A DNA stretch of 45,831 nucleotides from a virus: the IMG/VR virus record IMGVR_UViG_3300045988_042777. One strand, written 5' to 3'. Both the position numbers and the translations under genes were made by a program. Numbering within the stretch: the first letter of the stretch is position 1; the number at the start of each line of letters is the position of its first letter. Below are positions 1 to 33,459 of the stretch, in pieces. The notes beneath the pieces were generated by a model. It was not told the DNA's origin. It made no database searches and was given only the letters and a program-made list of their open reading frames with translations.

Positions 1-99
1 CTTTTTTTTTCTTGACGATATACAACTAAAGTAGTATAATGAGGGCAACGGAGGTGAGCATGATGGACACCAAGAAAAACAGCAGACTGCAAAACACCC
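1..99. repeat. Terminal overlap copy 1, identical to 45733-45831; marks circular closure of the contig
   Basis: Reading both ends base by base, 1-99 (c, t x9, cttgacgatatacaac...caaaacaccc) equals 45733-45831 exactly. Confidence 0.9.
12..40 (+). promoter_or_regulatory. Sigma-A/sigma-70-type promoter for the first XRE gene
   Basis: TTGACG (12-17), 17-nt spacer, TATAAT (35-40). It directly follows the T9 tract of the upstream terminator in the circular map. Confidence 0.6.
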
Positions 100-311
100 G
101 CCTGGCCGCTGGACTTTCTCAATCCCAGCTGGCCGCCGCCACTGGGCTCAATGTGCGGACGCTCCAATGCTATGAACAAGGGGCCAAAGACATCAACAAT
201 GCCAAGTTAGCCACCCTCCTCAAGCTCTGTTTGGCGCTTGACTGCAAGCTGGGTGACATCCTGACAGATGAGGCCACGGTCAAGCTATTGGAGCAGTACA
301 TGGCAGCATAA
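60..311 (+). CDS. XRE-family helix-turn-helix transcriptional regulator
   Basis: HTH signature LAAGLSQSQLAAATGLNVRTLQCYEQG. GGAGGTG RBS at 50-56 precedes ATG 60/63. The tracked ATG at 39 lies inside the -10 box and is unlikely. Confidence 0.8.
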   Translation: MMDTKKNSRLQNTRLAAGLSQSQLAAATGLNVRTLQCYEQGAKDINNAKLATLLKLCLALDCKLGDILTDEATVKLLEQYMAA

Positions 312-323
312 ACGGCAGATCAG

Positions 324-350
324 AGCGGGGCGGCAGCGCCCCGCTTTTCT
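324..350 (+). terminator. Rho-independent terminator
   Basis: Perfect 9-bp stem agcggggcg / cgccccgct with loop gcag, followed by ttttctcattttt. Confidence 0.7.
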
Positions 351-368
351 CATTTTTGGAGGTGCAGC

Positions 369-1409
369 ATGAACCACAAGGACGCAAAGCATTTTACATG
401 GGACCAACGCCTGACACTGGAGCGGATGCTCAAAAAGGGATTTACCAAGGCCGCCATTGCCAGCGCTCTGGGCAAGTGTGAGCGGTCCATCTACTATGAG
501 ATCAACCGGGGCCTCTGTGTCCAGCAGACCTCTGGCTATGAGTTTATAGAGGTTTACTGCCCGGAGGTGGCTGAGCGGAGATACAGAGAGTTTCTAAAAG
601 AAAAAGGCCGGGACCTCAAAATTGGAAAAGACCACGCCCTGGCCCGGAGGCTGGAGGAGCTTGTCATGGTCCATGGCTTTGCACCTGGAGCTGCCCTGGC
701 GGAGATCAGAAACAACGGAGAGGTCTATGATACCGTGATATGTGAAAACACGCTTTATAATTATATCTACCGGGGAGATGTTTTCCTCCAGCTCACACCG
801 GACCACCTGCACAATAAAGGCCGCCGTCATTATGCCGCAAACAGCAAACGGCAGGCCGCCAGGAGCTCCCACGGAAAAAGCATTGAAACCCGCCCCCAGG
901 AGGTCAAAGGACGGGGCAGCTTTGGCCATTGGGAGATGGACAGCATCATGGGGTGCAAAGGCTCCAAAAAAGCCCTCCTGGTCCTCACGGAACGCCGGAC
1001 ACGAATGGGCATTGTAATGCTCCTGGAGGACCACACGGCGGCCAGCGTGGTCAAGGCCATCAACCGCCTGGAGCGCCGTTTTGGCAAGCTGTTTTATAAA
1101 CTTTTCAAGTCAATCACTGTGGACAATGGCTGTGAGTTTCAGGACTTCGAGGGCATAGAGGCCGCCCACCGGCGCAAGGGCAAGCGGACCGTGGTGTTTT
1201 TCTGTCACCCATACAGCGCCTTTGAGCGGGGCTCCAATGAGAACATGAACAGGCTGATTAGACGATTTTTCCCCAAGGGCACCAGCTTTGACACCGTGAC
1301 GCCGGAGGAAGTGAGGGCAGCAGAAAAATGGGTGAACAGCTACCCCCGCAAGCTGCTGGGGTGGCAATCGGCGGCCACGCTCTTTGAAAAAGAGCTCCTC
1401 TCCGCCTGA
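369..1409 (+). CDS. IS30-family DDE transposase/integrase
   Basis: N-terminal HTH (ERSIYYEINRG). DDE catalytic blocks GHWEMD, TVDNGCEF and ERGSNENMNRLIRRFFPKG are typical of IS30-family transposases. Confidence 0.85.
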   Translation: MNHKDAKHFTWDQRLTLERMLKKGFTKAAIASALGKCERSIYYEINRGLCVQQTSGYEFIEVYCPEVAERRYREFLKEKGRDLKIGKDHALARRLEELVMVHGFAPGAALAEIRNNGEVYDTVICENTLYNYIYRGDVFLQLTPDHLHNKGRRHYAANSKRQAARSSHGKSIETRPQEVKGRGSFGHWEMDSIMGCKGSKKALLVLTERRTRMGIVMLLEDHTAASVVKAINRLERRFGKLFYKLFKSITVDNGCEFQDFEGIEAAHRRKGKRTVVFFCHPYSAFERGSNENMNRLIRRFFPKGTSFDTVTPEEVRAAEKWVNSYPRKLLGWQSAATLFEKELLSA

Positions 1410-1545
1410 CAGGGAATAAGAAAAGCAGCCGGATGAGATTGACCCATCCGGCTGGCTTGCCATGTTATTTTGTTGTGAAAATGCCCAATAAGGCGCTTTT
1501 TATTTATGCGCTTTGCTGTTTTTTCTTGACTTATGCAAATTTCTA

Positions 1546-1575
1546 TTGACTTTTAGCCAGGGTGACCGCTAAGAT
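1546..1575 (+). promoter_or_regulatory. Candidate early promoter
   Basis: TTGACT (1546-1551), 18-nt spacer, TAAGAT (1570-1575). A second TTGACT lies at 1526-1531. Confidence 0.35.
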
Positions 1576-1626
1576 TAGTTTGCAGGGTCCATGTAGAAAT
1601 ACATGGCACCCCGCAAGCTAATTTTT
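1570..1626. repeat. Long imperfect inverted repeat: about 26-bp arms with a 4-bp spacer (gaaa)
   Basis: Arms 1570-1595 and 1600-1626 read outward as tacatgg-accctgcaaactaatctt and tacatggcaccccgcaagctaatttt. About 22 of 26 columns match with one gap. A T9 run follows at 1622-1630. Confidence 0.75.
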
Positions 1627-1652
1627 TTTTATGCAGAAAAGAGGTGAAATCA

Positions 1653-1895
1653 ATGGCGAGCTACGCTTTCGCAACGCTCCAGGCCCGGCAAACGCTCCAG
1701 GAGCTTTGGGAGCAAGGCAAAACGGTCAAAGACATGGCGGTGGCTCTTGATATGCCGCTGTCCACGCTCTACACGGAACTGCGCCGGGGCCGTTCTGGGG
1801 TCCGCCTCCCGGACCAGCGATTGCAGTATGATGCTACCCTTGCCCAGCTCAGGATGCAGCAGGAACTTGAGCGGAGGGGAAAGCAGAGCCGCTGA
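1653..1895 (+). CDS. Small HTH protein resembling the N-terminal HTH of IS30 transposases
   Basis: RBS agaggtga precedes ATG 1653. TVKDMAVALDMPLSTLYTELRRG parallels TKAAIASALGKCERSIYYEINRG of the transposase. Confidence 0.6.
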   Translation: MASYAFATLQARQTLQELWEQGKTVKDMAVALDMPLSTLYTELRRGRSGVRLPDQRLQYDATLAQLRMQQELERRGKQSR

Positions 1896-1939
1896 GGCCA
1901 TACCTGTCACCGCTTTTCACAAATCAAAGGAGGCACAAC

Positions 1940-2146
1940 ATGAAACCCATTATTTTGAGGACCCAGACCCGCACCGATGAGTGCATCGGCACCGTCCGGC
2001 TCACCCCGGAGGCGGAGAAAGTTGTCCGGCGGCTCCGCTTCAAGACCGGCTTGCCCATCCGCCAGATTGTTTCTGAAATCATCGTCCAGGCAGAAAGCCT
2101 CATTGACATCTCCGGGGACGATGATGAGGACGAAACCGACCAATAA
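1940..2146 (+). CDS. Hypothetical protein with an acidic C-terminus
   Basis: AAGGAGG RBS upstream of the ATG; 68-aa ORF packed tightly against its neighbours. Confidence 0.55.
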   Translation: MKPIILRTQTRTDECIGTVRLTPEAEKVVRRLRFKTGLPIRQIVSEIIVQAESLIDISGDDDEDETDQ

Positions 2147-2156
2147 GGAGGAGCCC

Positions 2157-2387
2157 ATGAACAAAGCACGCCGCAAAGCTCTTGATGAGGTCATCTCCAA
2201 AATTGAGGAGGCCAAAGAGCTGTTGGAAAACCTCCAGGCGGAGGAGGAAGAATACCGGGATAACATGCCGGAAAACCTCCAGGGCTCTGAGAGGTATGAG
2301 GCGGCAGACGCCGCCGTGGACAACATGAGCAGCGCTGTGGATGCTCTGGATGAGGCCATCTCCAGCATTGAAAGCGCCCAGGAATAA
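2157..2387 (+). CDS. Hypothetical coiled-coil protein
   Basis: AAGGAGGAG RBS precedes ATG 2157 (MNKARRKALDEV...). The upstream part of the tracked ORF 1977-2387 has no RBS. Confidence 0.6.
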   Translation: MNKARRKALDEVISKIEEAKELLENLQAEEEEYRDNMPENLQGSERYEAADAAVDNMSSAVDALDEAISSIESAQE

Positions 2388-2404
2388 CAAAGGAGGACAT
2401 ACCA

Positions 2405-2991
2405 ATGAAAACCCCTGTTTTGAACATCGCCCCCGGTAAGACCGTGGACTACCACGGAGAGCCCTGCCTGGTGCTGGAGCACCGCAAGGACGGCACCCTC
2501 ATGCTGCACCTGGACCAGATGACCCACGCCTTTGGCAGCTCCAACAACTTTGCCGCCAGCTCTCTCCGGTCCCATCTCAATGGCCCCTATCTGCGGAGCC
2601 TCACGGACGGCAACCCCGATGAGATCATCACCCGCACTGTGGACCTCACCGCTCTCAATGGCTCCAAAGAGTATGGCACCTGTGAGTGCAAGGTGGCCCC
2701 GCTCACCCTGGATGAGCTCCGCAAGTACCATGACATTCTGCCCTTGCCTGAGAGCTTTGAGTGGTCCGTCACCCCCTGGAGCACCCCGGAGGTCAATGAG
2801 GATGACAAGTGGGTGATGGGCCTGTTCACCGGTGGCGGTGTCTACGACAACAGCTGCACGGCACCTACGGGTCCCGCCCCGCTTTCCTCATTCCCTCCTC
2901 CCTCACTGTGGAGGCTGAGGACGCCAACCCTCTGGAGCAGTACAGCACCCGTGAGCTGGCGGAGGAGCTTTTCCGCCGTATCACCAATTAA
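2405..2991 (+). pseudogene. Second DGR target paralog (C-type-lectin-like variable protein), disrupted by a 1-nt deletion inside VR2
   Basis: Frame A (2405 onward) gives FGSSNNFAASSLRSHLNG...WSVTPWS...VYDNSCT. The conserved end GTYGSRPAFLIPSSL...RRITN* is in frame B (stop at 2989-2991). The two frames join across one missing base at 2859/2860. Confidence 0.75.
2822..2883 (+). repeat. DGR variable repeat 2 (VR2), matching TR 39102-39164
   Basis: 62 nt against 63 nt of TR. There are 12 substitutions, all at TR adenines (aac to ttc, tac, gac, agc, ggc; aat to ggt), plus one deleted C. The 3' gggtcccgccccgct is identical. Confidence 0.8.
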
Positions 2992-3003
2992 GGGGTGAGC
3001 TCC

Positions 3004-3669
3004 ATGTCCACCCATGAAACAACCCGGAGGCCTGCTAAGCGCAAACGCCGCCCCAATTATCGCCCGGTCATCTTTTTGGCCCTGGTATGCGCTGCTATCT
3101 TCGCCGCCGGTTACTGCGTGGGGGTGAGGGCTGCTGACAAAGCGGCCCCCACTCTCCAGGAGCCGGTCCAGGAAAGCACCAGCACGCCGGAGCCTACCCA
3201 TGAGCCCAGTGAGGTCCCCTCCACGGAGGAGGTCCTCTGGCGGGATGACATAGTGACAGACGGCAACCTCCTGGACTATGACCTCCAGGTGACCATGCAG
3301 GCCTGTTGTGAGGAGTACAGCGTCCCCTACGCTCTGGCGCTGGCTGTGGCCGATGTGGAGAGCCGCTTTGACCCGGATGCCACCAGCAACACCAATGACT
3401 ATGGCCTCATGCAAATCAACAAGGTCAATCATGGGTGGCTCCTGGAGCAAGGCATTGACCCCATGACACCCGCCGGAAACATTGAGGCTGGTGTCCTGTT
3501 CCTCTCCGACTACCTCACCGCCTACGGGGACCCGGAAATGGCCATCATGGCCTACAACTGCGGCCCCTCCGGTGCTCAAAAGCTGTGGGCCTCCGGTACA
3601 TACCACACGGAGCACTCCACAAAGGTCATGGACCGCTTTGACTACTGGACAAGCATTTTGGAGGAGTAA
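3004..3669 (+). CDS. Membrane-anchored lytic transglycosylase (SLT domain)
   Basis: N-terminal TM segment (VIFLALVCAAIFAAGYCV). SLT motifs VADVESRFDP, YGLMQI and AYNCGP. RBS aaggggtga precedes ATG 3004. Confidence 0.8.
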   Translation: MSTHETTRRPAKRKRRPNYRPVIFLALVCAAIFAAGYCVGVRAADKAAPTLQEPVQESTSTPEPTHEPSEVPSTEEVLWRDDIVTDGNLLDYDLQVTMQACCEEYSVPYALALAVADVESRFDPDATSNTNDYGLMQINKVNHGWLLEQGIDPMTPAGNIEAGVLFLSDYLTAYGDPEMAIMAYNCGPSGAQKLWASGTYHTEHSTKVMDRFDYWTSILEE

Positions 3670-3672
3670 GCC

Positions 3673-3792
3673 ATGCCGTATTACTGGACCTGTCCCTATT
3701 GCGGGGCCAACCTGGACCCCGGAGAGAAATGTGACTGCCAAGAAAACACAAAGGAGGATGACATCCATGATGGAAATGAAAATCACCGTTGA
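3673..3792 (+). CDS. Small zinc-ribbon-like protein (39 aa), absent from the ORF track
   Basis: My translation is MPYYWTCPYCGANLDPGEKCDCQENTKEDDIHDGNENHR*. It carries CxxC and CxC pairs and fills the gap after the SLT gene. Confidence 0.35.
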   Translation: MPYYWTCPYCGANLDPGEKCDCQENTKEDDIHDGNENHR

Positions 3793-4294
3793 GGCTCCCG
3801 ATCTGGCCGCCTCTATCTTGAAACTGGCTGAGGCCATCGCCTCTGGCCCGGACCCGGCGCTGCTCATCCCGGATGAGCCGCTGCCGGTTTCCGCCTATCC
3901 GGCCACACCTGCCCCTGCGGTGGCTCCTGCGGCCCCCGTGGCGGCTCCTGTGAGCCCTGCGCCGGTAAACCCTACCCCGGGACCTGCGCCCACTATGGCG
4001 GCCCCTGTGGTGGCCCCCAGCCCCTCTCCCACGCCTGTGACCAATGCGCCGACTGCTGGCCCGACATCTGCCGCCCCTGGTAACACCCCCGCCCCTGCTG
4101 TGCCTGTTGCGGGAGCCCCCACCTATACCCTGGACCAAATCTCCCGGGCCGGTGCCTCCCTGGTTGACGCCGGGAAGATGCAGCAGCTTTTGGAGCTCCT
4201 GGGCCGCTATGGCGTGCAGGCCGTCACCCAGCTCAAGCCGGAGCAGTATGGCGCTTTCGCCACGGAGCTCCGGGGCCTGGGCGCTCAGATTTAA
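3767..4294 (+). CDS. Hypothetical Pro/Ala-rich protein with a conserved-looking helical C-terminus
   Basis: AAGGAGG at 3751-3757 is followed by in-frame ATGs at 3758, 3767, 3770 and 3776. There is a long PAPAVAPAAP low-complexity linker. Confidence 0.55.
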   Translation: MMEMKITVEAPDLAASILKLAEAIASGPDPALLIPDEPLPVSAYPATPAPAVAPAAPVAAPVSPAPVNPTPGPAPTMAAPVVAPSPSPTPVTNAPTAGPTSAAPGNTPAPAVPVAGAPTYTLDQISRAGASLVDAGKMQQLLELLGRYGVQAVTQLKPEQYGAFATELRGLGAQI

Positions 4295-4305
4295 GGAGGT
4301 GCCCC

Positions 4306-5544
4306 ATGCCTCCTGAGAAACACGCTTTGCTTTCTGCCTCCTCCGCCTCCCGCTGGCTCAAGTGTACGGCGGCCCCCCGCTTTGAGGAGGGGCTGCCGGA
4401 GAACACCAGCGAGTATGCGGAGGAGGGCCGCCTGGCCCACGCTATTGGTGAGCTCAAGGTCCTCAAGAAATGCACCCCCATGAGCACCCGGGCCTACAAC
4501 ACCCGGCTCAATAAGCTCAAGAAAAACCCCCTCTATGACCCGGAGATGGACAAGACCACGGACCTCTACCTGGAGCACATCACGGAGCAGGTCATGGACT
4601 ATGACAGCGCCCCCACCGTGGCCGTGGAGGTCCGGGTGGACTTTTCGGACTATGTGCCGGAGGGCTTTGGCACCTGTGACTGCTGCATCATCGGCGGCGA
4701 TCTGCTGAGCATCACCGACTACAAGCACGGCAAGGGCGTCCCGGTTTCCGCCGTGGGCAACCCGCAAATGAAACTTTACGCCCTGGGAGCGCTCCGGCGC
4801 TATGCCGCCGTGTTCGGTGACACCATCAAGCGGGTCCGCATGACCATTGACCAACCCCGGCTGGACAGCTACACCACGGATGAAATCACCGTGGAGGAGC
4901 TGAGGGCCTGGGGCGAAAGCATCAAGCCCATTGCCCAGCGGGCCTTTTCTGGCCTGGGTGAGTTTGTCCCCGGTGACCATTGCCGCTTTTGCCGTGGCAA
5001 GGCTCAGTGCCGGGCCCGTGCCAAGGTCAACACTGCCCTGGAGGACTTCAAGGACTGTGTGCCTGCCGGGAGCATCCCAGCGGATGCCATGGTCCCCCAA
5101 GAACACTCCCACACCGGAGCCATCACTGGTGAGGAGGTCCACCCGCTGCTCTCTGATGAGGAGATTGGCGATCTGCTGGAGCGTGGGGCCCAACTGGTCC
5201 AATGGTACAAAGACCTGGAGGCCTACGCCACGGAGGCCCTGCTGGCGGGAAAAGAAATCCCCGGCTGGAAACTGGTGGCGGGCCGGAGCAATCGGACCTT
5301 TACCGACCAGGACGCTGCCATCCAGGCTGTCATTGCTGCCGGGTATGATGAGGCCCTGGTCTATGACCGCAAGCCCAAGACGCTCTCTGAGCTGGAGAAA
5401 CTCATGGGCAAAGCTGAATTTGCGGAGAAGATTGGCGGCTTTGTGACAAAGCCTCTGGGCAAGCCCACCCTTGCCCCGGCCTCTGACAAGCGGGAGGCCT
5501 ACGCCCCCGCCGCCTCTGATTTTGCCGGGGTGGTTGATGGATGA
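4306..5544 (+). CDS. DUF2800-type PD-(D/E)XK (Cas4-like) nuclease
   Basis: N-terminal LSASSASRWLKC, the ITDYKHGKG nuclease core and a C-terminal Cys cluster CRFCRGKAQC. It sits upstream of the SSB and PolA, as in DUF2800/DUF2815 replication modules. Confidence 0.7.
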   Translation: MPPEKHALLSASSASRWLKCTAAPRFEEGLPENTSEYAEEGRLAHAIGELKVLKKCTPMSTRAYNTRLNKLKKNPLYDPEMDKTTDLYLEHITEQVMDYDSAPTVAVEVRVDFSDYVPEGFGTCDCCIIGGDLLSITDYKHGKGVPVSAVGNPQMKLYALGALRRYAAVFGDTIKRVRMTIDQPRLDSYTTDEITVEELRAWGESIKPIAQRAFSGLGEFVPGDHCRFCRGKAQCRARAKVNTALEDFKDCVPAGSIPADAMVPQEHSHTGAITGEEVHPLLSDEEIGDLLERGAQLVQWYKDLEAYATEALLAGKEIPGWKLVAGRSNRTFTDQDAAIQAVIAAGYDEALVYDRKPKTLSELEKLMGKAEFAEKIGGFVTKPLGKPTLAPASDKREAYAPAASDFAGVVDG

Positions 5545-5948
5545 ACGGCAGCGACTTTTTCACCATCCGGCACGGCTCTTTCCATGCGGCTGTCCTGTAC
5601 TCCGCACTGGAACACCTGCCCATCCACAACCTCAAAAAGCTCTTTCGGCTGGCCAAAAAGGCCCAGTTTGAAAATGAGGCCGCCATCCAGGGCATCCGGT
5701 CCTACTTTGACACCACCATCCCAGAGGCCCAGGAAACCATGAGAGCTGCCGCAAGAGCCTATGAGGACGGCTGGAGAAAGGTGGACAAGCCAAGGAGCCG
5801 CAACCCCAAAACGGTTGAGCAGCTCCGCATCAACAAAGAGCTCACCACCCGTTTCAAGCAAGCCCACGCACGCTATGAGCGGCTGGTGGCATCCCGCAAG
5901 GTATTTGAGGAAACCCTCTTTCCCGATACGAAACACCCAATGAATTAA
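5541..5948 (+). CDS. Hypothetical protein
   Basis: Its ATG overlaps the upstream stop (ATGA) and the gene lies in an operon context. Confidence 0.5.
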   Translation: MNGSDFFTIRHGSFHAAVLYSALEHLPIHNLKKLFRLAKKAQFENEAAIQGIRSYFDTTIPEAQETMRAAARAYEDGWRKVDKPRSRNPKTVEQLRINKELTTRFKQAHARYERLVASRKVFEETLFPDTKHPMN

Positions 5949-5967
5949 GAAAAGGAGATCAAGGATT

Positions 5968-6642
5968 ATGTATCAGAATGACCCCATGAAAGTGCTGACC
6001 GGTGAGGTGCGCCTCTCCTACTGCAACCTGACCACCCCCAGGGCCTCCCAGCAGGGCGGTGAGCCCAAGTTTTCCGTCACCCTGCTCATCCCCAAGACCG
6101 ACACGGCCACCAAGGCGGACATTGACGCCGCCATCAACGCCGCCGCTCAGGAGGCTTTGACCAAGACCTGGAACGGGGCCCGGCCTCCGGTGCTCAAGGT
6201 GCCCATCCATGACGGTGACGGCGTGCGCCAGTCCGGTGTCCCCTTTGGCGATGAGTGCAAAGGCCACTGGGTCATCACCGCCAGCACCAAGAACAAGCCC
6301 CAGGTGGTGGGCATCGACAACATCAACTGTGAGCTGGCCCCCTCCGACATTTACAGCGGCATGTATGGCCGTGTGACCATCCGCTTTTTCGGCTACTCCA
6401 ACAGCGGAAACAAGGGCATCGGCTGCGGCCTGGGCAATGTCCTCAAGACCCGTGACGGGGAGCCTCTGAGCGGCCAGGCCTCCGCCGCCTCTGATTTTGC
6501 GGGCATCGATGCTGCCCCCGCCGCTCCGGCCCCCAACTATGGTGCCCCCGCTCCCAACTATGGTGCGGCCCCCATGCCTGCCAACACCCCGCCCTGGAAC
6601 GGCGGCAACGGCATCAACCCCATCACCGGACAGCCCATGTGA
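5968..6642 (+). CDS. DUF2815-type phage single-stranded DNA-binding protein
   Basis: GEVRLSYCNLTTPR start and GRVTIRFFGY block. Gly/Pro/Asn-rich tail with tandem APAPNYGA repeats. Confidence 0.65.
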   Translation: MYQNDPMKVLTGEVRLSYCNLTTPRASQQGGEPKFSVTLLIPKTDTATKADIDAAINAAAQEALTKTWNGARPPVLKVPIHDGDGVRQSGVPFGDECKGHWVITASTKNKPQVVGIDNINCELAPSDIYSGMYGRVTIRFFGYSNSGNKGIGCGLGNVLKTRDGEPLSGQASAASDFAGIDAAPAAPAPNYGAPAPNYGAAPMPANTPPWNGGNGINPITGQPM

Positions 6643-6666
6643 TAACTGACAAAGGAGGAAATACCG

Positions 6667-7044
6667 ATGAAAACCCGCTTTGATGGCAAGCTCTGGATTG
6701 GAGCTTTTGGCCTGGCCCTGGATGTCAAGGACATGGAAACCGCCCACCTGCTCAACACGGTCAAGATGCTGGTGCAAAAGCCCGCCCGTGTCCAGGCCAT
6801 GTTGGTCACTGACATTGAGGCCGCCACCTTTGAGGAACAGGAGGCCTGGACCCCCAACGGCAACGGGGAGGACATCCGCAAGAAGTCCCTCCACAACGCC
6901 ACCAGCCTCACCTCTGAGGAGCTGGTCCAGTATGTGACCGGCACCCCGCTCTTTAAGGCCATGATGGATGAGCTGGAGGCCCGTGGCGTGAACACGGAGA
7001 ACATCATGGAGCTCTACACCAAGGACGCCGCTTTCAGCGCATAA
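6667..7044 (+). CDS. Hypothetical protein
   Basis: AAAGGAGGAA RBS; 125-aa ORF between the SSB and the polymerase. Confidence 0.55.
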   Translation: MKTRFDGKLWIGAFGLALDVKDMETAHLLNTVKMLVQKPARVQAMLVTDIEAATFEEQEAWTPNGNGEDIRKKSLHNATSLTSEELVQYVTGTPLFKAMMDELEARGVNTENIMELYTKDAAFSA

Positions 7045-7056
7045 GGAGGCCCACTC

Positions 7057-9045
7057 ATGCACCATCTCAGCATTGACCTTGAAACCTACTCCAGCGTGCC
7101 GCTGGCAAAGGCCGGTGCCCAGAAGTACATCCAGAGCCCGGACTTTGAAATCCTGCTCTTTGCGTTCAGCCTGGATGGTGCGCCTGTTGAAATCATCGAC
7201 CTGGCCCGGGGGGAGAGGCTCCCCCCGTGGCTGGTCCAGGCCATCACCAGCCCGGAGTACATCAAGCACGCCTACAACGCCCCCTTTGAGTGGGGCTGCC
7301 TCTCAAAGTATCTGGGCACCCTGCCACCCAGCCAATGGCGCTGCACCATGTTCCATGGCCTCTACTGCGGCTACACGGCGGGCCTGGATGCCACTGGCAA
7401 GGCCCTGGGGCTCCCCCAGGACAAGCAAAAGCTCAACACTGGCAAGGCCCTCATCCGCTATTTCTGCATACCGTGCAAGCCCACAAAGGCCAACGGACAG
7501 AGGACCCGCAACCTGCCCCAGCATGACCCCGCAAAATGGGAGCTTTTCAAAGAGTATTGCAAGCAGGATGTGGTCACGGAGATGGAGATTGAGCGGCGGC
7601 TCTCAGCGTTCATGCCCCCGGACTGGGTGCAGAAACAATGGGAAACCGACCTCATCATCAACGCCCGGGGCGTGGCCGTTGACCTGGAGCTGGTCACCGG
7701 GGCCCTGTATCTGGGTGATACCGTGCGCCAAAACCTCACAGCGGAGGCCGTGCGGCTCTCCGGTCTGTCTAACCCCAACAGCGTGGCCCAGCTCTCCGCA
7801 TGGCTCCAGGAGGAGATTGGTGAGGAGCTGGCCGATCTGAGAAAGGACACCGTGGCCCGCCTGCTGGGCCGTGACGATAACAGCGCCCAGGTGAGCCGCA
7901 TGTTGGAAATCCGGCAAGAGCTGGGCAAGACCTCCACCAAAAAGTATGACGCCATAGAGGCCGCCGTCTGCGATGATGGCCGGGTCCGGGGACTGCTCCA
8001 ATTCTACGGGGCCAACCGGACAGGGCGCTGGGCCGGGCGGCTGGTGCAGGTGCAAAACCTGCCCCGGACCTACACGGAGCCGCTGGACCTGGCCCGTGAG
8101 CTGGTCAAGACCCGCAAGCTGGACGCTCTGCGGCTCATCTATGGCAGCGTGCCTGACACCCTCAGCCAGCTCATCCGCACGGCCTTTGTGGCCCCGGAGG
8201 GCCATGTCCTCATTGATGCTGATTTTTCGGCCATTGAGGCCCGTGTCATTTCCTGGCTGGCCGGTGAGCAATGGCGGCTGGAGGTGTTCCGCACACACGG
8301 CAAAATCTATGAGGCCTCTGCCTCTCAGATGTTCGGCGTGCCCCTGGAGCTCATCAAAAAGGGCAACCCAGAGTATGCACTCCGGCAAAAGGGCAAGGTG
8401 GCTGAGCTGGCCCTGGGCTACCAGGGCAGCACCGGTGCCCTCATCACCATGGGAGCCCTGGACATGGGGCTCACTGAGGAGGAGCTGCCGGACATCGTGA
8501 GCCGCTGGAGAGAGGCCAACAAGCGCATCCGTGACCTCTGGTATTCCATGGACAGCGCCGCCGTCCAAGTCATCACAGAGGGCGGCAGCGTGGGCGTCAA
8601 CGGCCTGCTACTGGCCCGTGAGTACGACTATGACAACGGCACCGACTGCCTCACCATCCTGCTCCCATCCGGGCGCAAGCTCTACTACATCAACCCCAGC
8701 ATTGGCCAGAACGAATGGGGGCGGCCCTCCATCTCCTACATGGGCATGGACCAGAAAACCAAGCGGTGGAAACGCATTGAAACCTATGGCGGCAAGCTGG
8801 TGGAGAACTGTGTGCAGGCCATCGCCCGGGACTGTCTGGCCGCATCCATTGACAGGCTGGAGGCCGCCAAGCTCCCTGTGGTGTTCCATGTGCATGATGA
8901 GGTGGTCATTGATGTGGCCCCCTTTGCCGATGAGGACACCATGCTCTCCACCGTCTGCTCCATCATGGGGGAGCCGGTGCCCTGGGCACCTGATCTGCCC
9001 CTCAAAGCCGCTGGCTGGGTGGGCTATTACTTCACCAAAGACTGA
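7057..9045 (+). CDS. Family-A DNA polymerase with N-terminal 3'-5' exonuclease
   Basis: Exo motif SIDLETYS. Pol motifs DADFSAIEARV (A), RQKGKVAELALGYQGS (B) and VHDEVVID (C). Confidence 0.9.
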   Translation: MHHLSIDLETYSSVPLAKAGAQKYIQSPDFEILLFAFSLDGAPVEIIDLARGERLPPWLVQAITSPEYIKHAYNAPFEWGCLSKYLGTLPPSQWRCTMFHGLYCGYTAGLDATGKALGLPQDKQKLNTGKALIRYFCIPCKPTKANGQRTRNLPQHDPAKWELFKEYCKQDVVTEMEIERRLSAFMPPDWVQKQWETDLIINARGVAVDLELVTGALYLGDTVRQNLTAEAVRLSGLSNPNSVAQLSAWLQEEIGEELADLRKDTVARLLGRDDNSAQVSRMLEIRQELGKTSTKKYDAIEAAVCDDGRVRGLLQFYGANRTGRWAGRLVQVQNLPRTYTEPLDLARELVKTRKLDALRLIYGSVPDTLSQLIRTAFVAPEGHVLIDADFSAIEARVISWLAGEQWRLEVFRTHGKIYEASASQMFGVPLELIKKGNPEYALRQKGKVAELALGYQGSTGALITMGALDMGLTEEELPDIVSRWREANKRIRDLWYSMDSAAVQVITEGGSVGVNGLLLAREYDYDNGTDCLTILLPSGRKLYYINPSIGQNEWGRPSISYMGMDQKTKRWKRIETYGGKLVENCVQAIARDCLAASIDRLEAAKLPVVFHVHDEVVIDVAPFADEDTMLSTVCSIMGEPVPWAPDLPLKAAGWVGYYFTKD

Positions 9046-9063
9046 TAAAGGAGGCCAAGGACC

Positions 9064-9261
9064 ATGCACATGATAAACGACAAAGGAGAGGCCGTCTATT
9101 TCAACTATGTCCGTAAGAACAACAAAGACTACTGGGTGGTCAAGGGCATCGGCTCCACCGTTGTCTATGGGCGGGACCGTGAGCGCCGCAAAAGCCGCCA
9201 TTTCACCCAGGAACAGCAGGCGGAGCGCTACCTTGCCCGGCATGGTTTCCGGGCCGATTAG
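9064..9261 (+). CDS. Hypothetical protein
   Basis: AAGGAGG RBS; 65-aa ORF. Confidence 0.5.
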   Translation: MHMINDKGEAVYFNYVRKNNKDYWVVKGIGSTVVYGRDRERRKSRHFTQEQQAERYLARHGFRAD

Positions 9262-9303
9262 CGCCGTTTTTTCCGCTGGAAAAAACAACAAAGGAGGTTA
9301 CCA

Positions 9304-10565
9304 ATGAAAACCGCGTATGACCGGATGATGGAGAATGACTCCTACCAAAAGACCAAGGACTTCATCATCAAGCAAAAGTGGCCCTACCTCAAAAAAAGGC
9401 CTATGCCGAAAAAATCGCCTGGGAGTTTTACCAGCACCCCGATGTTGCCGGACGGTGCTATGTGACCGTTGGCGGGCTTGACAGCATTACCCTGTTTCTG
9501 TTTCTCCGATCTATCGGCATCAATGTGCCAGCCGTGTCCGTTTCCTCTCTGGAGGACAAGAGCATCCAGCTTGTCCACAAGGCCCTGGGCATCCGCTCCC
9601 TGCCTCCCATCAAGGATGAAAACGGGAGGCCATACACAAAAATGCGAGTTATACAGCAATATGGCTATCCTGTCATATCCAAAGAGGCGGCACAGAAAAT
9701 CAGCCATCTCCAAAACCCTACCAGCAAAAATGCAACCGTGCGCCACGCCATAATGACTGGAGAAACCGGAGAATACGGGGGATTTAAGAAAAACAGCCGG
9801 ATGAAAATGTCCCAAAAATGGCTGGAGAAGTTTGGCGGGCCGGAAAATGAAAACGAGGGGACCAACTACCAGACCGCTCCCTTTAAGGTTTCAGACGCCT
9901 GCTGCTACTACCTCAAAGAGCGCCCCTGTGATCTGTATGCCAAAGATACAAAGTGTTTCCCCTATCTGGGGCTCATGGCCTCCGAGGGTGGCCGCCGTCA
10001 AAAATCTCTCATGTGGAACGGGTGCAACTATGTCGGCAAAAAGACAAAGCGGAGCTGTCCCTTTGCCATTTTCAGCCGCCAGGACCTCCTCACAATGGCC
10101 CTGGAAATGGACGCCTACTACCACGCCCACTGGGAAGAATTTAAGCCAATCACCGTTGACGCTGACACCGATGCCGTGACCTACGGGAAGCCCATACACC
10201 TGGACACCATCGTCCCCGCCATCTACGGAGAGATTGCAGAGTGTGGCCACCGCTCTGAGGCCGAAATCCAGGAGCTTGTGGAGGCCAACGGCGGCATCAT
10301 GGATGAGAGCTTTTCCAGACCGCTCCTGTGTACCACTTTGGCCCAGAGGACCGGCTGCTCTATGTGCGGCTTTGGGGTACACATGGAAAAGCGCCCGCAC
10401 CGCTTTGACCTGCTCTGGGAACGAAACCCCAAAGAATGGGACTTGTGGATGCACCACATTGAGCAGGACGCCTCTGGCAACTGGTGCGGCTGGGACCGTG
10501 TTCTGGACTACATCGGCGTGGAGTGGAGAAACCCGGAGCAATTCTTTGGAGGTGAGAAAAAGTGA
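9304..10565 (+). CDS. PP-loop ATP pyrophosphatase of the PAPS-reductase/DndC-like family; N-terminus ambiguous (frame change at an A7 run)
   Basis: PP-loop VTVGGLDS and C-terminal Cys motif RTGCSMCGFG. The body is 9378-10565 from a GTG with no RBS. A strong AAGGAGG RBS with ATG lies at 9304 in another frame, and the two frames meet at A7 (9391-9397). Confidence 0.7.
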
Positions 10566-11692
10566 TCTATGCAGATGCAGCAGCCACCACAAGGCTGGCT
10601 CCAGGTGTTCTTAAAGCCATGCAGCCCTACATGGAGGATAACTTTTTCAATCCTGGTGGGGTCTACCCAGGAGCCGTCTATGTGCGCCGTGCAGTAAATG
10701 GTGCTCATTCCATTGTAGGTGAGGCGCTGGGGTGCCAAGGGAGAGAAATTTTCTTCACCTCTGGAGGAACGGAGGCAGACAACTGGGCGCTCAAGCAGTT
10801 TATTGCCGAAAAGCCCGCTCACATCATCACCAGCCAGATTGAACACAAAGCCATCCTCAACACCTGCAAAGCGCTCCAGCAAATGGGCTGGGATGTGACA
10901 TATCTGCCGGTGGATAAATACGGGATTGTGCAGCCGGATGACCTGCAATCTGCCATGCGAAACAACACCAGACTGGTGAGCATCATGCTGGCAAACAACG
11001 AAGTGGGGACCATTGAGCCAATTAAAACGCTGGCAGCTGTGGCCCACGCTGGAGGCGCTCTGTTTCACACTGACGCTGTGCAGGCGGTGGGACACATCCC
11101 CGTAAATGTGAATGAGCTGGGCGTGGACTTTCTTTCCCTCTCTGCCCACAAGTTTGGGGGCCCCAAAGGCATGGGGGCCCTCTACGCCAAAGACGGTGCA
11201 ATCTCCTCCTTTGTGGACGGAGGTGGCCAAGAAATGGGCCGCCGATCTGGCACAGAAAATGTGCCTGGTATCATTGGCACCGCTGTTGCCTTGATGCTGG
11301 CAGACGGCCTCATGCTGCACAATGCCCAGAAAGTCCGTCACCTCCGGGACCGCATCATTGATGAATTATCCAGCATGGACGGCGTTTTGGTAACTGGCCC
11401 GGACCCCGGACCTATGCGGCTGCCTGGGCTTGCCTCATTCATCATTGACGGAGTAGACAGTGAAACGCTTGTCATGGATTTATCTGCCAAGGGTGTCTGT
11501 GTTTCCGCTGGCTCAGCGTGTAGCTCTGGGACAGGCAAGCCATCCTATGTGCTCCGTGCCATGGGCTACTCCGAGCGGGAGGCCTGGTCCAGTCTGCGTG
11601 TTTCCCTGGATGACCACATAACCCACGATGAGGTTTCTGAGCTCATCCAGGCTATCAAATCCAGCATAAAGGTTATAAGAAACCAGCATTAA
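10562..11692 (+). CDS. Cysteine desulfurase (class V aminotransferase; NifS/IscS/DndA-like)
   Basis: PLP-lysine motif SAHKFGGPKG, RSGTENVPGI, and catalytic Cys loop SAGSACSSG. The GTG start overlaps the upstream stop (GTGA). Confidence 0.9.
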   Translation: MIYADAAATTRLAPGVLKAMQPYMEDNFFNPGGVYPGAVYVRRAVNGAHSIVGEALGCQGREIFFTSGGTEADNWALKQFIAEKPAHIITSQIEHKAILNTCKALQQMGWDVTYLPVDKYGIVQPDDLQSAMRNNTRLVSIMLANNEVGTIEPIKTLAAVAHAGGALFHTDAVQAVGHIPVNVNELGVDFLSLSAHKFGGPKGMGALYAKDGAISSFVDGGGQEMGRRSGTENVPGIIGTAVALMLADGLMLHNAQKVRHLRDRIIDELSSMDGVLVTGPDPGPMRLPGLASFIIDGVDSETLVMDLSAKGVCVSAGSACSSGTGKPSYVLRAMGYSEREAWSSLRVSLDDHITHDEVSELIQAIKSSIKVIRNQH

Positions 11693-11704
11693 GGAGGCAT
11701 CAAC

Positions 11705-12343
11705 ATGAAAATCATCTCTCCCAGTTTTGAAATTCTCACGCCCCTGGACGGCAAAACCATCCTCAAGCACATTGAGCTGTGTGGCCGGGTGTGCTATAAG
11801 TCCGAGGACAAAATCACCGACACCAGCGCCGCTGCCTTTGTGGCTGGCATTATCAAGCGGGGCCATGAGGCCGTGCTGGAGCACTTCAACATCACCATCA
11901 AGTTTATCTGTGACCGGGGTGTTTCCCATGAACTGGTCCGGCACCGTCTGGCATCCTACTGCCAGGAAAGCACCCGCTACTGCAATTACTCCAAAGAGGG
12001 CTTTGGCGGTGAAATCGCCGTCATCCGCCCGGCGTTTCTGGTGGAGGGCACCAAGGCCTTTGCCTGCTGGAGAGGGGCCTGTGAAACGGCTGAGCGGTCC
12101 TATTTCTCCCTGCTGGAGTGGGGCTGTTCTCCTCAAGAGGCCCGCTCTGTGTTGCCCAACAGCCTCAAGACGGAGGTGGTGATGACTGCCAACCTGCGGG
12201 AATGGCGGCATTTCTTCAAGCTCCGCACGGCTCCGGCAGCTCACCCCCAGATGAGAGAGGTGGCCATCCCGCTGCTCCACCGGATGCAGGAGCTCATCCC
12301 CGTTGTGTTTGATGATCTGGAGGTGCCGCATGAAAAGAGCTGA
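11705..12343 (+). CDS. thyX: FAD-dependent thymidylate synthase ThyX
   Basis: ThyX signature RHRLASYCQESTRY (RHRxxSxxxxSxR); AAGGAGG RBS. Confidence 0.9.
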   Translation: MKIISPSFEILTPLDGKTILKHIELCGRVCYKSEDKITDTSAAAFVAGIIKRGHEAVLEHFNITIKFICDRGVSHELVRHRLASYCQESTRYCNYSKEGFGGEIAVIRPAFLVEGTKAFACWRGACETAERSYFSLLEWGCSPQEARSVLPNSLKTEVVMTANLREWRHFFKLRTAPAAHPQMREVAIPLLHRMQELIPVVFDDLEVPHEKS

Positions 12344-25766: not shown

Positions 25767-26951
25767 ATGCCTAACACCAAGTTTGACGCCAAGTTTGACG
25801 CCAAGTCTTTCAATCCCCAGGCTTTCAAGTATGCGGTGGACCGCATCCCCCGCACCCGGCTCAATGAGATGCGGAAGTCCAGAGCCCTGGCGGGCAACCC
25901 CGACATCCGGGAGGTGTTCAGCACTCAGGGTGGCACCGGCTATGCCCGTATTGCTATGAGAGGCCTGCTGGACGGCGATGCTGTCAATTATGACGGTCAG
26001 ACCGACATCACCGCCACCTCCACCAAGACCTTTGAGCAGGGCGTGGTGGTCACTGGCCGTGCCAAGGCCTGGACTGAAAAGGATTTTTCCTTTGACATCA
26101 CCGGCGGCATTGACTGGATGGACAATGTGGCCCAGCAGGTTTCTGAGTATTGGCAGGACATTGACCAGGACACCATCCTGGCTGTCCTCAAGGGCGTCTT
26201 TGCCATGACCGGCGGCCAGAGCGCTGAGTTTGTGGCCAAGCACACCTATGAGGTGGCAGGCAACATGGAGGCCACCACCATGAACAGCGCCACCGCCCAG
26301 GCATGCGGTGACCGCAAGAAGAAGTTTTCTCTTGTGTTCATGCACTCTGTCCCCGCCACCAACCTGGAAAACCTCAACCTGCTCACCGCTCTCAAGTACA
26401 CCGACAAAGACGGCGTGACCCGTGACCTCACCCTCTACACCTGGAACGGCAAGACGGTGGTGGTGGATGACGGCATGCCCGCCGAGGACGGCTATTTCCC
26501 CGCCAGCTCCACCGATGAGGGAGCGCTCCAGGTCAAGGCCTCTGGTGCCTCTACCGGCCAGATCAACCAGGAGGATGTCACCCCCTATTTTGGCGATGGC
26601 ACCCCGGCGGCGGACAGCTATGTGGTCCCCGGCACCCGCTACACCACCTATGTGCTGGGCGAGGGTGCCATCAACTTTGAGGACATCGGGGCCAAGGTCC
26701 CCTATGAGATGGCCCGTGACCCCAAGACGGATGGCGGCGTGGACACCCTCTACACCCGCCAGCGCAAGGTCTTTGCCCCCTTTGGCATCTCCTACGAAAA
26801 GACCAGCCAGATCACTCTCTCTCCCACGGATGCGGAGCTGGCCAAGGGTGCCAACTGGTGCCTGGTCCATTCCGGCGAAAGCAGCGAGGGGGACCGCTCC
26901 TACATCGCCCACAAGGCCATCCCCATTGCCCGCATCCTCTCCAGAGGCTAA
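25767..26951 (+). CDS. Major capsid protein
   Basis: 394 aa, positioned after the scaffold gene, with strong RBS context. Confidence 0.8.
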   Translation: MPNTKFDAKFDAKSFNPQAFKYAVDRIPRTRLNEMRKSRALAGNPDIREVFSTQGGTGYARIAMRGLLDGDAVNYDGQTDITATSTKTFEQGVVVTGRAKAWTEKDFSFDITGGIDWMDNVAQQVSEYWQDIDQDTILAVLKGVFAMTGGQSAEFVAKHTYEVAGNMEATTMNSATAQACGDRKKKFSLVFMHSVPATNLENLNLLTALKYTDKDGVTRDLTLYTWNGKTVVVDDGMPAEDGYFPASSTDEGALQVKASGASTGQINQEDVTPYFGDGTPAADSYVVPGTRYTTYVLGEGAINFEDIGAKVPYEMARDPKTDGGVDTLYTRQRKVFAPFGISYEKTSQITLSPTDAELAKGANWCLVHSGESSEGDRSYIAHKAIPIARILSRG

Positions 26952-26956
26952 CGGCC

Positions 26957-27352
26957 ATGGAGGCCGTATATGAGGCCGTTGTGACCCGGCTGGCCATGCT
27001 GGGCTACACCGTCACGGACGATGACAAAACCGGCCTTGAGTACACCATCCGCAAGTGTGAGGCAGAGCTCCTGGCGAACATCAACCACCGGGAGCTCCCG
27101 CCTCCTCTTTTTTATACGCTTGTGGACATGGTGGCCGGTCAATTCCTGTTTGATAAGAAAGCCGCCGGAGGGCTGGAGGGCTTTGACTTTGAGGCCCCCG
27201 CCAAGAGCATCACGGAGGGTGACATCTCTGTCACCTTTGCCGGGGCCAGTGATGGTGCAAGCAATGCGGAAAGCCGCTTTGACGCCATGCTGTCCAGGCT
27301 CATGCACCCGGCAGAGAGCACCCTGGCGGCTTTTCGGAGGCTGAGGTGGTAG
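26957..27352 (+). CDS. Head-tail connector (gp6-like)
   Basis: MEAVYEAVVTRL start, with position and size typical of the family. The tracked upstream extension overlaps the capsid gene. Confidence 0.6.
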   Translation: MEAVYEAVVTRLAMLGYTVTDDDKTGLEYTIRKCEAELLANINHRELPPPLFYTLVDMVAGQFLFDKKAAGGLEGFDFEAPAKSITEGDISVTFAGASDGASNAESRFDAMLSRLMHPAESTLAAFRRLRW

Positions 27353-28623: not shown

Positions 28624-28625
28624 GC

Positions 28626-28820: not shown

Positions 28821-28821
28821 T

Positions 28822-30147: not shown

Positions 30148-30156
30148 AGGAGGGAA

Positions 30157-30636: not shown

Positions 30637-30663
30637 CACCAGAATATAAGGAGGAAAAAATCC

Positions 30664-31283: not shown

Positions 31284-31339
31284 CAGCAAGGCCTCCGCTT
31301 TACGGCGGGGGCCTTAATTCTTAAAGAGGAGGTGAACTT

Positions 31340-33400: not shown

Positions 33401-33459
33401 CCCTTGCCCATCCCCAGAAAAGCAGAGTTTTTTCCAATGGAAAAAAGGAGGGCATCCAC

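Follow-up and report, generated by a model that had tools for sequence, protein, structure and literature searches.

The reference model for DGRs is that of Bordetella phage BPP-1, which combines Avd, a template repeat (TR), a reverse transcriptase (RT), adenine mutagenesis and a variable repeat (VR) with a GC-rich 3' end. Its target, Mtd, is a lectin-fold protein in which the VR closes the domain. BPP-1 has a single target adjacent to the cassette, and Mtd carries additional N-terminal domains. Closer to the locus described here are two published systems in which one TR serves two targets. In phages nd4 and nd12 (Baykov et al., 2023; PMC10743442), a large target with DUF6273 and Fn3 domains (target1, or "tentaclin") is encoded beside the RT, while a small target consisting of DUF6273 only (tgt2) is encoded in the early region. 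The same layout was reported in 2024 for Lelie and CP11 (PMC11792537), where the small target lies remote from the cassette (Table S3 of that paper: ~16 kb for Lelie, 22.8 kb for CP11) and where the cognate IMG/VR genomes of CP11 show a spike of variation at both VRs.

Two further studies bear on remote second targets. In the DGR of the gut phage Quimbyvirus, the second target is far from the structural module and probably non-structural (Benler et al., 2021; PMC8008677), yet this system differs from ours in its Bacteroides host, in C-type lectin targets of another family and in an RT spread over several ORFs. The survey of Wu et al. (2018; PMC5758913), a catalogue of all DGRs that does not treat the present phage group or DUF6273, recorded non-adjacent targets within the same prophage, two targets in 13% of DGRs and TR/VR length differences in 7%.

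The window analyzed here is a 45,831-nt IMG/VR record (IMGVR_UViG_3300045988_042777) in which positions 1-99 are identical to 45733-45831 (repeat family D1). The contig is circular, with a genome of 45,732 bp. It is probably the complete 45.7-kb genome of a temperate myovirus from the gut whose hosts are Oscillospirales of the Faecalibacterium type. When 1-12000 and 26000-45000 were compared with GenBank phages by megablast, all matches were to unannotated "Bacteriophage sp." fragments (78-85% identity). All genes and repeats discussed below are on the plus strand. The original prediction had called the use of one TR for two such different targets unusual, which was overstated given the nd4/nd12 and Lelie/CP11 layouts. 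The window adds one well-documented member to the tentaclin plus tgt2 class of two-target phage DGRs. Its architecture is already published, and what sets this genome apart is its lesions alone: a -1 deletion in VR2 and S190R in the RT.

The window appears to contain a single cassette in the order Avd, TR, RT and large target. The Avd-like accessory gene (38458-39006) is directly 5' of the TR, a position that fits Avd, and has a weak match to Pfam bAvd (23.5 bits, E 8e-5, under the 40-bit gathering score). The TR (39065-39164; repeat family D2), which is the sole TR in the window, has adenine at 35 of its 100 positions and a series of AAC codons. It is followed by the RT gene (39395-40432; RVT_1, E 2.5e-16) and by the large target gene (40432-42243), whose 603-aa product has an N-terminal DUF6273 domain (Pfam E 1e-26, residues 41-193) and then Fn3-like repeats. 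The nd4/nd12 target1 is built in the same way, with ~570-600 aa, an N-terminal C-lec-like DUF6273 domain, a 5' VR and then Fn3/Ig-like domains. PHROG matches span the Fn3-type C-terminal part of the window protein and the best of them is "Hoc-like head decoration", so the label "tail fibre" that it had been given is not established; proteins of this type are named tentaclin in the literature (PMC10743442). VR1 (40896-40995, aligned to 39065-39164) lies in the 5' third of the gene, at codons 155-188 of 603, and all 15 of its substitutions relative to the TR are at TR adenines.

The second target is a small gene of the tgt2 type, with DUF6273 only, at 2405-2991. It is frameshifted in the window, unlike tgt2 of nd4/nd12, and its repaired product has 195 aa. 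This product gave a weak match to Pfam DUF6273 (21.2 bits against a cut-off of 23.5 bits), its homologues carry precomputed PF19789, and it is a paralogue of the large target at 30% identity, in agreement with the claim that the gene encodes a small paralogue, of about 195 aa, of the variable domain of the large target. As in nd4/nd12, the small target has short flanking helices and a VR at its 3' end, and as in nd4 its gene is in the early/replication region, preceded by genes for an IS30-like transposase and an HTH protein. The two lineages are different (~30% protein identity): the window tgt2 matched nd4 tgt2 by tblastn with E 2e-14, at 31% identity and 88% query coverage, and the nd4/nd12 tgt2 proteins have 234 and 294 aa rather than 195. 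Lelie and CP11, which are temperate and infect Faecalibacterium, also resemble the window: a single TR serves two VRs, one located in a large protein and the other in a small one, and in either target the VR is at the C terminus of the DUF6273 domain. The small target of Lelie is 34% identical to the window tgt2 over half of the query. CP11 was compared by coordinates, no CP11 sequence having been found among the phage records searched. The CP11 region has 35.7 kb, with 22.8 kb between TR and VR2, a spacing that differs from that of the window, which is probably not a CP11-type phage.

VR2 (2821-2883) aligns with TR 39101-39164 through 12 substitutions and one 1-nt gap, which is within 1 nt of the alignment first proposed (2822-2883 with 39102-39164). 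All 12 substitutions are at TR adenines (39105/06, 39111/12, 39117/18, 39123, 39126, 39133, 39141/42 and 39147), and the 42 aligned non-A positions are unchanged. With 21 adenines among 63 aligned positions, the chance of this distribution is 1.1e-7. The claim of adenine-only substitution was therefore reproduced, and realignment, a check set beforehand, gave no non-adenine mismatch between VR2 and the TR. The 3' end of VR2 (2869-2883) is the GC-rich core GGGTCCCGCCCCGCT, of which the window has exactly three copies (at 2869 in VR2, 39150 in the TR and 40981 in VR1; 0.21 expected), so the predicted identity of the GC-rich 3' sequence holds for all 15 nt in TR, VR1 and VR2. Upstream, homology to the TR ends at TR 39099 (T vs G). 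VR2 thus uses ~64 nt of the TR against 100 nt for VR1, as had been noted from the shorter match and as is also the case in nd4/nd12. As VR2 shares just the 3'-terminal 64 nt with the TR, fewer codons are diversified.

The sequence that follows the core (2884-2904; TTCCTCATTCCCTCC..., repeat family D9) is VR1-like and TR-unlike, as first described: counted by eye, 10 of 15 positions match the VR1 flank and 5 of 15 the TR flank. The first ~15 nt of this flank are kept across lineages. The flank is a candidate IMH-like determinant, but it also codes for a conserved peptide, F-L-I-P-S. A downstream hairpin of the BPP-1 type was not detected in the window: when the 82 nt that begin with the core were folded as DNA in search of a hairpin or cruciform 3' of the VR, neither VR2 nor VR1 scored significantly above shuffled sequence (z-scores of 0.41 and -1.17, respectively).

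Could the likeness of VR2 to the TR come from ordinary paralogy, or from gene conversion with VR1, rather than from retrohoming? The two targets are paralogous and their 3' flanks are alike. Outside VR2, however, the DNA of tgt2 and of the large target is too diverged for alignment, yet the 63-nt VR2 is identical to the TR at every non-A position. Moreover, VR2 tracks TR-specific non-A polymorphisms across lineages, with variability confined to TR-A positions, and VR2 and VR1 differ from one another at A sites. Conversion between the VRs was rejected on these last grounds, and we regard the explanation as a whole as very improbable.

The tracking of the TR by VR2 was seen in a survey of related phages. 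The repaired tgt2 has 1732 database homologues, and the best 120 of the 1732 all have 194-197 aa and 91-97% identity. High column entropy is nearly all at residues 141-155, in codons with TR adenines, and the residue repertoire is that of NNC codons. At the nucleotide level, variability among 28 IMG/VR copies of VR2 was 0.47 where the TR has A and 0.037 where it does not. Eight IMG/VR contigs have both a TR and VR2: the number of non-A mismatches was zero in six of the eight, a single T>C in one and four in one. In 7 of the 8, VR2 follows the haplotype of its own TR at non-A positions with at most one exception; in the other contig (3300045988_026419), VR2 departs from its own TR at four non-A positions, which shows that the two repeats do not always keep in step. 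The seven TR/VR2 pairs from isolates of Butyricicoccus, Vescimonas and Flintibacter and from four MAGs had no non-A mismatch (7/7).

The confinement of variation to A codons in the homologues, together with the tracking of the own TR at non-A positions, indicates that VR2 is a real and actively rewritten second target, and the survey shows that VR2 retrohoming is ongoing in the lineage. With its adenine-only differences and shared core, the locus bears out the proposal that one TR serves both targets. Active rewriting of the small target extends over many prophages of Oscillospirales, among them those of the cultured Butyricicoccus, Vescimonas and Flintibacter isolates.

From these results we hold with high confidence that a single TR rewrites both VR1 and VR2 in this Oscillospirales phage; that the deletion in VR2 is a real allele we consider somewhat more likely than not. 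The TR RNA would be reverse-transcribed with misincorporation opposite adenines, and the cDNA would replace two homologous acceptors. One is VR1, which belongs to the N-terminal DUF6273 domain of the large 603-aa target encoded beside the RT; the other is VR2, the 3'-terminal part of the DUF6273 domain in the stand-alone 195-aa paralogue of the early operon. The features common to both acceptors are the core GGGTCCCGCCCCGCT and a similar pyrimidine-rich 3' flank. As the contig is circular, the distance from TR to VR2 is ~9.5 kb across the junction and ~36 kb on the linear or prophage map; in an integrated prophage, VR2 would thus be at the opposite end from the cassette.

The lesion in VR2 is a 1-nt deletion at 2858/2859, where one C of TR 39139-39140 (CC) is missing. 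The missing C is directly 5' of an AAC that is mutated to GGC in VR2, and the allele with the deletion carries TGCACGGCACC where the frame-intact counterpart has TGCACCGGCACC. The ORF from the ATG at 2405 keeps the conserved frame to codon 152 and then loses it, ending with a stop at 2998 after 197 aa. The conserved C-terminus, YGSRPAFLIPSSL...RRITN, is in the frame of an ORF at 2809-2991, and insertion of one C after 2858 gives the 195-aa protein ending at 2991. The claim that one missing C moves the C-terminus out of frame was thus correct. The VR of the window tgt2 is therefore not in an intact ORF, whereas those of relatives are, and the deletion is missing from 7/7 near relatives (97.5-99% identity). 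A frameshifted VR2 has been reported neither for nd4/nd12 (PMC10743442) nor for Lelie/CP11 (PMC11792537).

One way to retain a functional gene would be programmed ribosomal frameshifting through the change of frame. Specific support for it is absent, beyond a downstream frame that is open to the normal stop at 2991. Nearly all relatives encode tgt2 in a single frame, and no slippery heptamer was seen when 2850-2862 was read by eye. Since the shift is inside a hypervariable stretch, a recoding signal could not be conserved there. We rejected this candidate, and its probability is negligible.

There are at least two other possibilities for the frameshift. Most likely, the deletion is a real allele that arose by RT or cDNA slippage during retrohoming. 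The alternative, plausible but in our estimate of less than even probability, is that it is an assembly or consensus artefact of a hypervariable VR2 population and that the phage really has an intact 195-aa gene. Errors of this kind do occur at the locus: one assembly of the locus (L011) has a tandem VR2 duplication around an N, one contig is broken inside VR2 (L010/L013), and chimeric TR/VR2 or VR1/VR2 joins were found in L137, L135, L191, L237, P0124 and P0132. Among the top hits of a search of representative sequences, several were fusions of the tgt2 N-terminus to RT, terminase or TR sequences (P0124, P0123 and P0132), which were treated as assembly artefacts. VR2 and TR loci are thus often mis-assembled in metagenomes, and single-base lesions in them are not to be interpreted without reads. 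The deleted base is within a CC dinucleotide, a context that is also prone to sequencing error, and another copy (L180) has two 1-nt deletions in C runs. The frameshifted 197-aa product is unique in the protein collection, an exact look-up having found no record of it anywhere else, and intact alleles make up ~97-99% of the copies surveyed.

Several observations count against an artefact. The 99-nt terminal overlap suggests a de Bruijn assembly with k=99, in which a deletion needs read support and one k-mer spans the entire variable stretch. In the early-region stretches compared (~1565-7044), the other 1-2 nt indels between the window and its seven near relatives are intergenic, and no other indel disrupts the frame of a gene. 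Finally, the deletion adjoins a mutagenized AAC, which is the context of genuine DGR indels: indels between TR and VR were found in 25/372 DGRs and were frameshifting in 11, and 74% of indels adjoin AAC (PMC5758913). The restriction of the deletion to the window, the recurrence of indels in VR2 and the neighbouring AAC therefore favour a real allele.

The recurrence of indels is mostly a matter of in-frame changes. VR2 has the canonical length in 28/31 IMG/VR copies and 92/104 metagenome copies, and in-frame length variants were seen in 8/120 protein clusters, 2/31 IMG/VR copies and up to 11/104 metagenome copies. Frameshifted alleles, at ~1-3% of the VR2 copies surveyed, were found elsewhere in IMGVR 3300008725_000055, P0127 and L180. 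Length changes in tgt2 are overwhelmingly multiples of three. Together with the active rewriting and the tracking of the own TR, this retention of the frame speaks for a functional small protein that is under selection; the proposed survey of relatives found the intact form in >1,700 homologues, with nearly all variation at TR-adenine codons. In the window, the frameshift would remove the last three strands and the C-terminal helices and would leave the allele of this accessory gene null. Its absence from 15/54 nd4-like genomes (PMC10743442) indicates that the small target is dispensable.

The second lesion is in the RT. Codon 190 (39962-39964) is AGG, which gives LGYQTRQ instead of the signature LGYQTSQ and so changes the Ser of the motif defined as [I/V/L]GxxxSQ (PMC7826257). 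The change is private to the window: 60/60 relatives have Ser at this position, encoded by AGC, TCA or TCC. Both window-private lesions, S190R and the VR2 frameshift, thus fall in the DGR system, and the DGR may be decaying in this genome, with an RT impaired by S190R and VR2 fixed as a relic pseudogene while the lineage remains active. DGRs without read-level activity have been reported for Lelie and CP11 (PMC11792537). If S190R impairs the RT, the null VR2 allele could not be rewritten. Against decay, VR1 is intact and differs from the TR only at adenines, and the RT ORF is otherwise identical to that of relatives (344/345). Furthermore, the bRT change Q187P, which affects the Gln neighbouring the motif Ser, left misincorporation opposite adenines unaltered (PMC7826257). 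Two lesions in one genome could also be coincidence or error, and on balance we consider decay rather unlikely. The window may be a natural example of a DGR-made null allele together with a lesion in the RT signature motif, which is of interest only if reads confirm both.

The fold of the repaired tgt2 protein was predicted with AF2 (pLDDT 96.3). In the model, the variable residues are in strands 146-150 and 154-157 and in the connecting loops, so that the VR forms a hairpin (146-157), and the C-terminal helices are at 176-194. Foldseek with this model found DUF6273 proteins in BFVD (E 1e-8) and a DUF6273-containing IgA peptidase (9qa6; E 2e-5), while similarity to canonical C-type lectins was weak (E above 0.08). 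In nd4/nd12 the VR is likewise a surface beta-hairpin. Because the VR2 codons are modelled as a surface beta-hairpin of a lectin-like domain, the tgt2 protein is most likely a diversified ligand-binding module.

The position of tgt2 among early genes, as first claimed, is clear from its neighbours. The early operon is opened by an HTH gene (1644-1895), close to the left prophage junction at ~1565, and contains HTH, tgt2, SLT transglycosylase, exonuclease, SSAP and DNA polymerase genes. A scan of 1-4400 for promoters and terminators gave counts not above those of shuffled sequence; one promoter-like site from that scan (1546-1575) overlaps the prophage junction. The original prediction described one target as a virion protein and the other as non-structural, putative assignments that follow from gene position only. 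The small DUF6273 target might be an early-expressed, non-virion intracellular binder for which DGR indels act as an on/off switch, a reading that we consider improbable. In that case tgt2, near the head of the early operon, would be translated next to an SLT transglycosylase anchored in the membrane, the DGR would serve a purpose other than adsorption, such as countering host defence or excluding superinfection, and the S190R RT would possibly raise the frequency of indels. The SLT-domain transglycosylase gene (2995-3669; PF01464) encodes an N-terminal hydrophobic segment, as read from its sequence, and directly follows tgt2 in most of the related loci examined. The order HTH - tgt2 - SLT - exonuclease, continued by SSAP in the conserved arrangement, is kept across related hosts.

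The first and last 99 nt of the window (1-99 and 45733-45831) are identical, and this exact terminal overlap shows that the window holds a circular genome in full (45,732 bp); the overlap length suggests de Bruijn assembly at k=99. Nearly every gene is on the + strand, and the DGR cassette, also on +, follows the tail genes (baseplate J, tail-collar fibre). It consists of an Avd-like gene (38458-39006; weak bAvd match), the template repeat (TR; 39065-39164), the reverse transcriptase (RT; 39395-40432; RVT_1, E 2.5e-16) and a large target of 603 aa (40432-42243) whose start overlaps the RT stop. The N-terminal 190 residues of the large target are DUF6273 (E 1e-26), followed by Fn3-like repeats, and its variable repeat VR1 (40896-40995, +) differs from TR at 15 positions, 15/15 of them TR adenines. 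Among PHROGs, the large target matches "Hoc-like head decoration" best, and not tail fibre (E 3e-171, best-scoring stretch residues 301-603).

The original prediction placed a second variable repeat, VR2, in the small gene tgt2 (+ strand; ATG 2405, with a good AAGGAGG ribosome-binding site upstream; conserved-frame stop 2989-2991), and this interpretation is essentially right. Re-alignment placed VR2 at 2821-2883 (+) against TR 39101-39164, within 1 nt of the predicted coordinates. As had been claimed, all substitutions (12/12) fall at TR adenines with no mismatch at non-adenine positions, which has a chance probability of 1.1e-7 given 21 A in 63 aligned positions. The GC-rich 3' sequence also proved identical to TR: its core GGGTCCCGCCCCGCT is present in three exact copies in the window (TR, VR1 and VR2) versus 0.21 expected. 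The only gap is the predicted missing C, 1 nt of the CC at TR 39139-39140, which throws the conserved C-terminus into another frame; reading from ATG 2405, the conserved frame is lost after codon 152, and the conserved C-terminus runs in the other frame to 2989-2991. Insertion of one C after 2858 gives a product of 195 aa. This repaired protein is 30% identical to the large-target DUF6273 domain over 161 aa (E 2e-10), in agreement with the proposal that tgt2 is a paralogue of that variable domain. No signal peptide or membrane segment was seen on reading its sequence.

Four lines of evidence concur with the prediction that VR2 is a second target of TR. First, a large protein collection contains 1732 homologues of the repaired protein, and the best 120 of the 1732 are all 194-197 aa long at 91-97% identity. 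High column entropy lies nearly all at residues 141, 143, 145, 147-150, 152, 153 and 155. The residues found at these sites (N, D, Y, S, G, H, F, L, V, I, R) are those expected for NNC codons derived from AAC. Second, IMG/VR yielded 36 contigs with a VR2-type flank and 49 with TR; in the 28 canonical VR2 copies, variability was 0.47 at TR-adenine positions versus 0.037 elsewhere, and the few variable non-A positions match sites that are polymorphic among the TRs themselves. Third, eight contigs carry both TR and VR2, and the non-adenine haplotype of VR2 equals that of its own TR without exception in six, with a single T>C in one and with four mismatches in one (for example, TR/VR2 haplotypes CCTG..ACC..AATGTC versus GCTG..TCC..AATATC..AAC..TCC). 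Fourth, when one genome per prokaryotic species was scanned, prophages with the three-repeat system turned up in Butyricicoccus pullicaecorum ET57, Vescimonas sanitatis MH37-1 and Flintibacter muris DSM 110149, as well as in several Oscillospiraceae MAGs; the isolate and MAG TR/VR2 pairs differ at adenines only (7/7). Because TR-specific non-adenine bases are carried into VR2, there is direct evidence that information flows from TR to VR2. VR2 is a live target at the lineage level: a true second target, of the tgt2 type, under active diversification.

The 51.7-kb contig IMGVR 3300045988_026419 (loci L095/L060) carries a VR2 with four non-adenine differences from its own TR that matches another TR haplotype, which points to inter-phage recombination, a chimeric contig or a stale VR2. 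Two TR-flanked repeats, in related loci L043 (IMGVR 3300045988_006712) and L058, lack some of the adenines expected at the usual AAC positions (e.g. GGCGCCGTTTGCTTGGGCGCC...). Either VR-like sequence seems to have overwritten a TR there, or TR and VR were exchanged by mis-assembly.

The combination of a large and a small DUF6273 target was published previously and is not new here. In nd4 and nd12, gut phages described by Baykov et al. (2023; PMC10743442), one TR diversifies two targets. In "tentaclin" (~570 aa), an N-terminal DUF6273 whose VR is close to the 5' end precedes Ig/Fn3 domains; tgt2 is small, consists of DUF6273 only and has its VR at the 3' end. VR2 is shorter than VR1, and tgt2 is absent from 15/54 nd4-like genomes. 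The best annotated match of the window tgt2 is that of nd4 (31% identity, E 2e-14), which likewise lies in the early/replication region, 3' of an HTH gene and an IS30-like transposase 43% identical to the window's. Lelie and CP11, from a 2024 study of Faecalibacterium prophages (PMC11792537), also have large and small DUF6273 targets, with the second VR 16-23 kb from TR (Table S3), and in CP11 variation spikes at both VRs in cognate genomes. The CP11 spacing is unlike that of the window. In Quimbyvirus, the second target is distal and was interpreted as probably non-structural (Benler et al. 2021; PMC8008677), and in the catalogue of Wu et al. (2018; PMC5758913) two-target DGRs account for 13%, with non-adjacent targets within prophages. 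A GenBank phage search found no close DNA-level relationship to any named phage.

A 91%-identical copy resides in a prophage of Faecalibacterium sp. An58, where homology starts at window 1565, beside host genes, placing the attachment site at ~1565. The left junction (attP side; about 1565, position 9406 of related locus L099) is overlapped by a promoter-like site (about 1546-1575), and its An58 neighbours are host polysaccharide-synthesis genes. The integrase candidate is the IS30-like DDE transposase (369-1409), which belongs to neither the tyrosine nor the serine recombinases. In the integrated prophage, tgt2 comes third from the left end and TR lies ~37 kb off at the opposite end; on the circle ~9.5 kb separates the two, with lysis and regulatory genes and the IS30-like transposase between. 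The order HTH - tgt2 - SLT transglycosylase - small ORF - exonuclease - SSAP is kept in nearly all related prophages examined. By gene position alone, an early, non-structural role for tgt2 is favoured. The SLT-domain lytic transglycosylase gene (2995-3669, +) starts 4 nt past the tgt2 stop and encodes an N-terminal basic and hydrophobic segment; of the related loci examined, most have it 3' of tgt2 (Vescimonas, Butyricicoccus, Flintibacter, Angelakisella, MAGs), and one IMG/VR locus lacks it. The two genes may form a functional pair.

An AF2 model of an intact homologue 97% identical to tgt2 (65-sequence alignment; mean pLDDT 96.3) has a small N-terminal beta-barrel, a mixed alpha/beta domain and C-terminal helices (176-194). 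The variable residues occupy strands 146-150 and 154-157 and the surrounding loops, forming a beta-hairpin like that described for nd4/nd12 tgt2 (PMC10743442). Foldseek matched viral DUF6273 proteins in BFVD (E 1e-8) and, in the PDB, the Thomasclavelia IgA peptidase 9qa6 (E 2e-5), whose N-terminal domain is annotated DUF6273 (PMC12402451). On this model, the frameshift is predicted to cost the protein its C-terminal helices and final two strands as well as strand two of the hairpin, a loss that would almost certainly leave the window's tgt2 product non-functional.

Indels that shift the frame of a VR are already documented in a minority of DGRs: Wu et al. (PMC5758913) recorded TR/VR indels in 7%, with eleven frameshifting cases, and indels tended to adjoin AAC. 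The base at 2859-2862 is missing in the window alone versus seven near relatives (97.5-99% identity). We consider it probable that the deletion is a real allele; an assembly artefact is somewhat less likely, yet a substantial possibility. Across the early-region stretches compared (about 1565-7044), the window's other 1-2 nt indels versus those seven relatives are intergenic, so the contig is not generally error-ridden. Assemblies of the tgt2/VR2 locus are error-prone, however, which favours an artefact: among related loci, L011 (4608-4698) has VR2 duplicated in tandem around an N, a contig is split inside VR2 (L010 end/L013 start), and TR/VR2 and VR1/VR2 chimeras join TR or VR1 upstream sequence to the VR2 flank (L137, L135, L191, L237). 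In some predicted proteins (P0124, P0123, P0132), the N-terminus of tgt2 is joined to RT, to terminase or to TR sequence read out of frame. Public assemblies frequently break or mis-join at these TR and VR repeats.

VR2 length also varies recurrently in the lineage. Among the best 120 protein clusters, eight are 194, 196 or 197 aa; the IMG/VR copies comprise 28 canonical, two in-frame (-3, +6) and one frameshifted (+4), and 104 distinct anchored metagenome copies comprise 92 canonical, up to 11 in-frame and one frameshifted. The metagenome in-frame changes mostly add or remove NNC units within the run of AAC codons. Length changes by multiples of three are in excess, consistent with AAC-repeat slippage combined with selection to keep the frame intact. 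A relative at 61% identity (P0127) is also frameshifted inside VR2. The window deletion lies outside the AAC run, directly 5' of an AAC with both adenines mutated (AAC to GGC). As a real allele, it could plausibly have arisen by slippage after two consecutive misincorporations, in line with PMC5758913.

The RT of the window carries a second lesion. Codon 190 (39962-39964) is AGG, giving Arg (LGYQTRQ) within the DGR RT signature motif [I/V/L]GxxxSQ (PMC7826257). Ser occupies this position in 60/60 related RTs from the fetched loci, encoded by AGC, TCA or TCC, and its retention through three different codons indicates purifying selection on the residue. S190R is the sole difference between the window RT and its nearest relatives (344/345 identical) and the sole window-private residue in the RT alignment. 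If S190R is real and damaging, the DGR of this single genome may be impaired and its VR2 null allele not overwritable. In L114 (CAUWNE010000008, a "Dysosmobacter" MAG), a 98.6% identical relative with a TR identical to the window's, the RT gene has a 1-nt length difference at window position 39572 and may be frameshifted.
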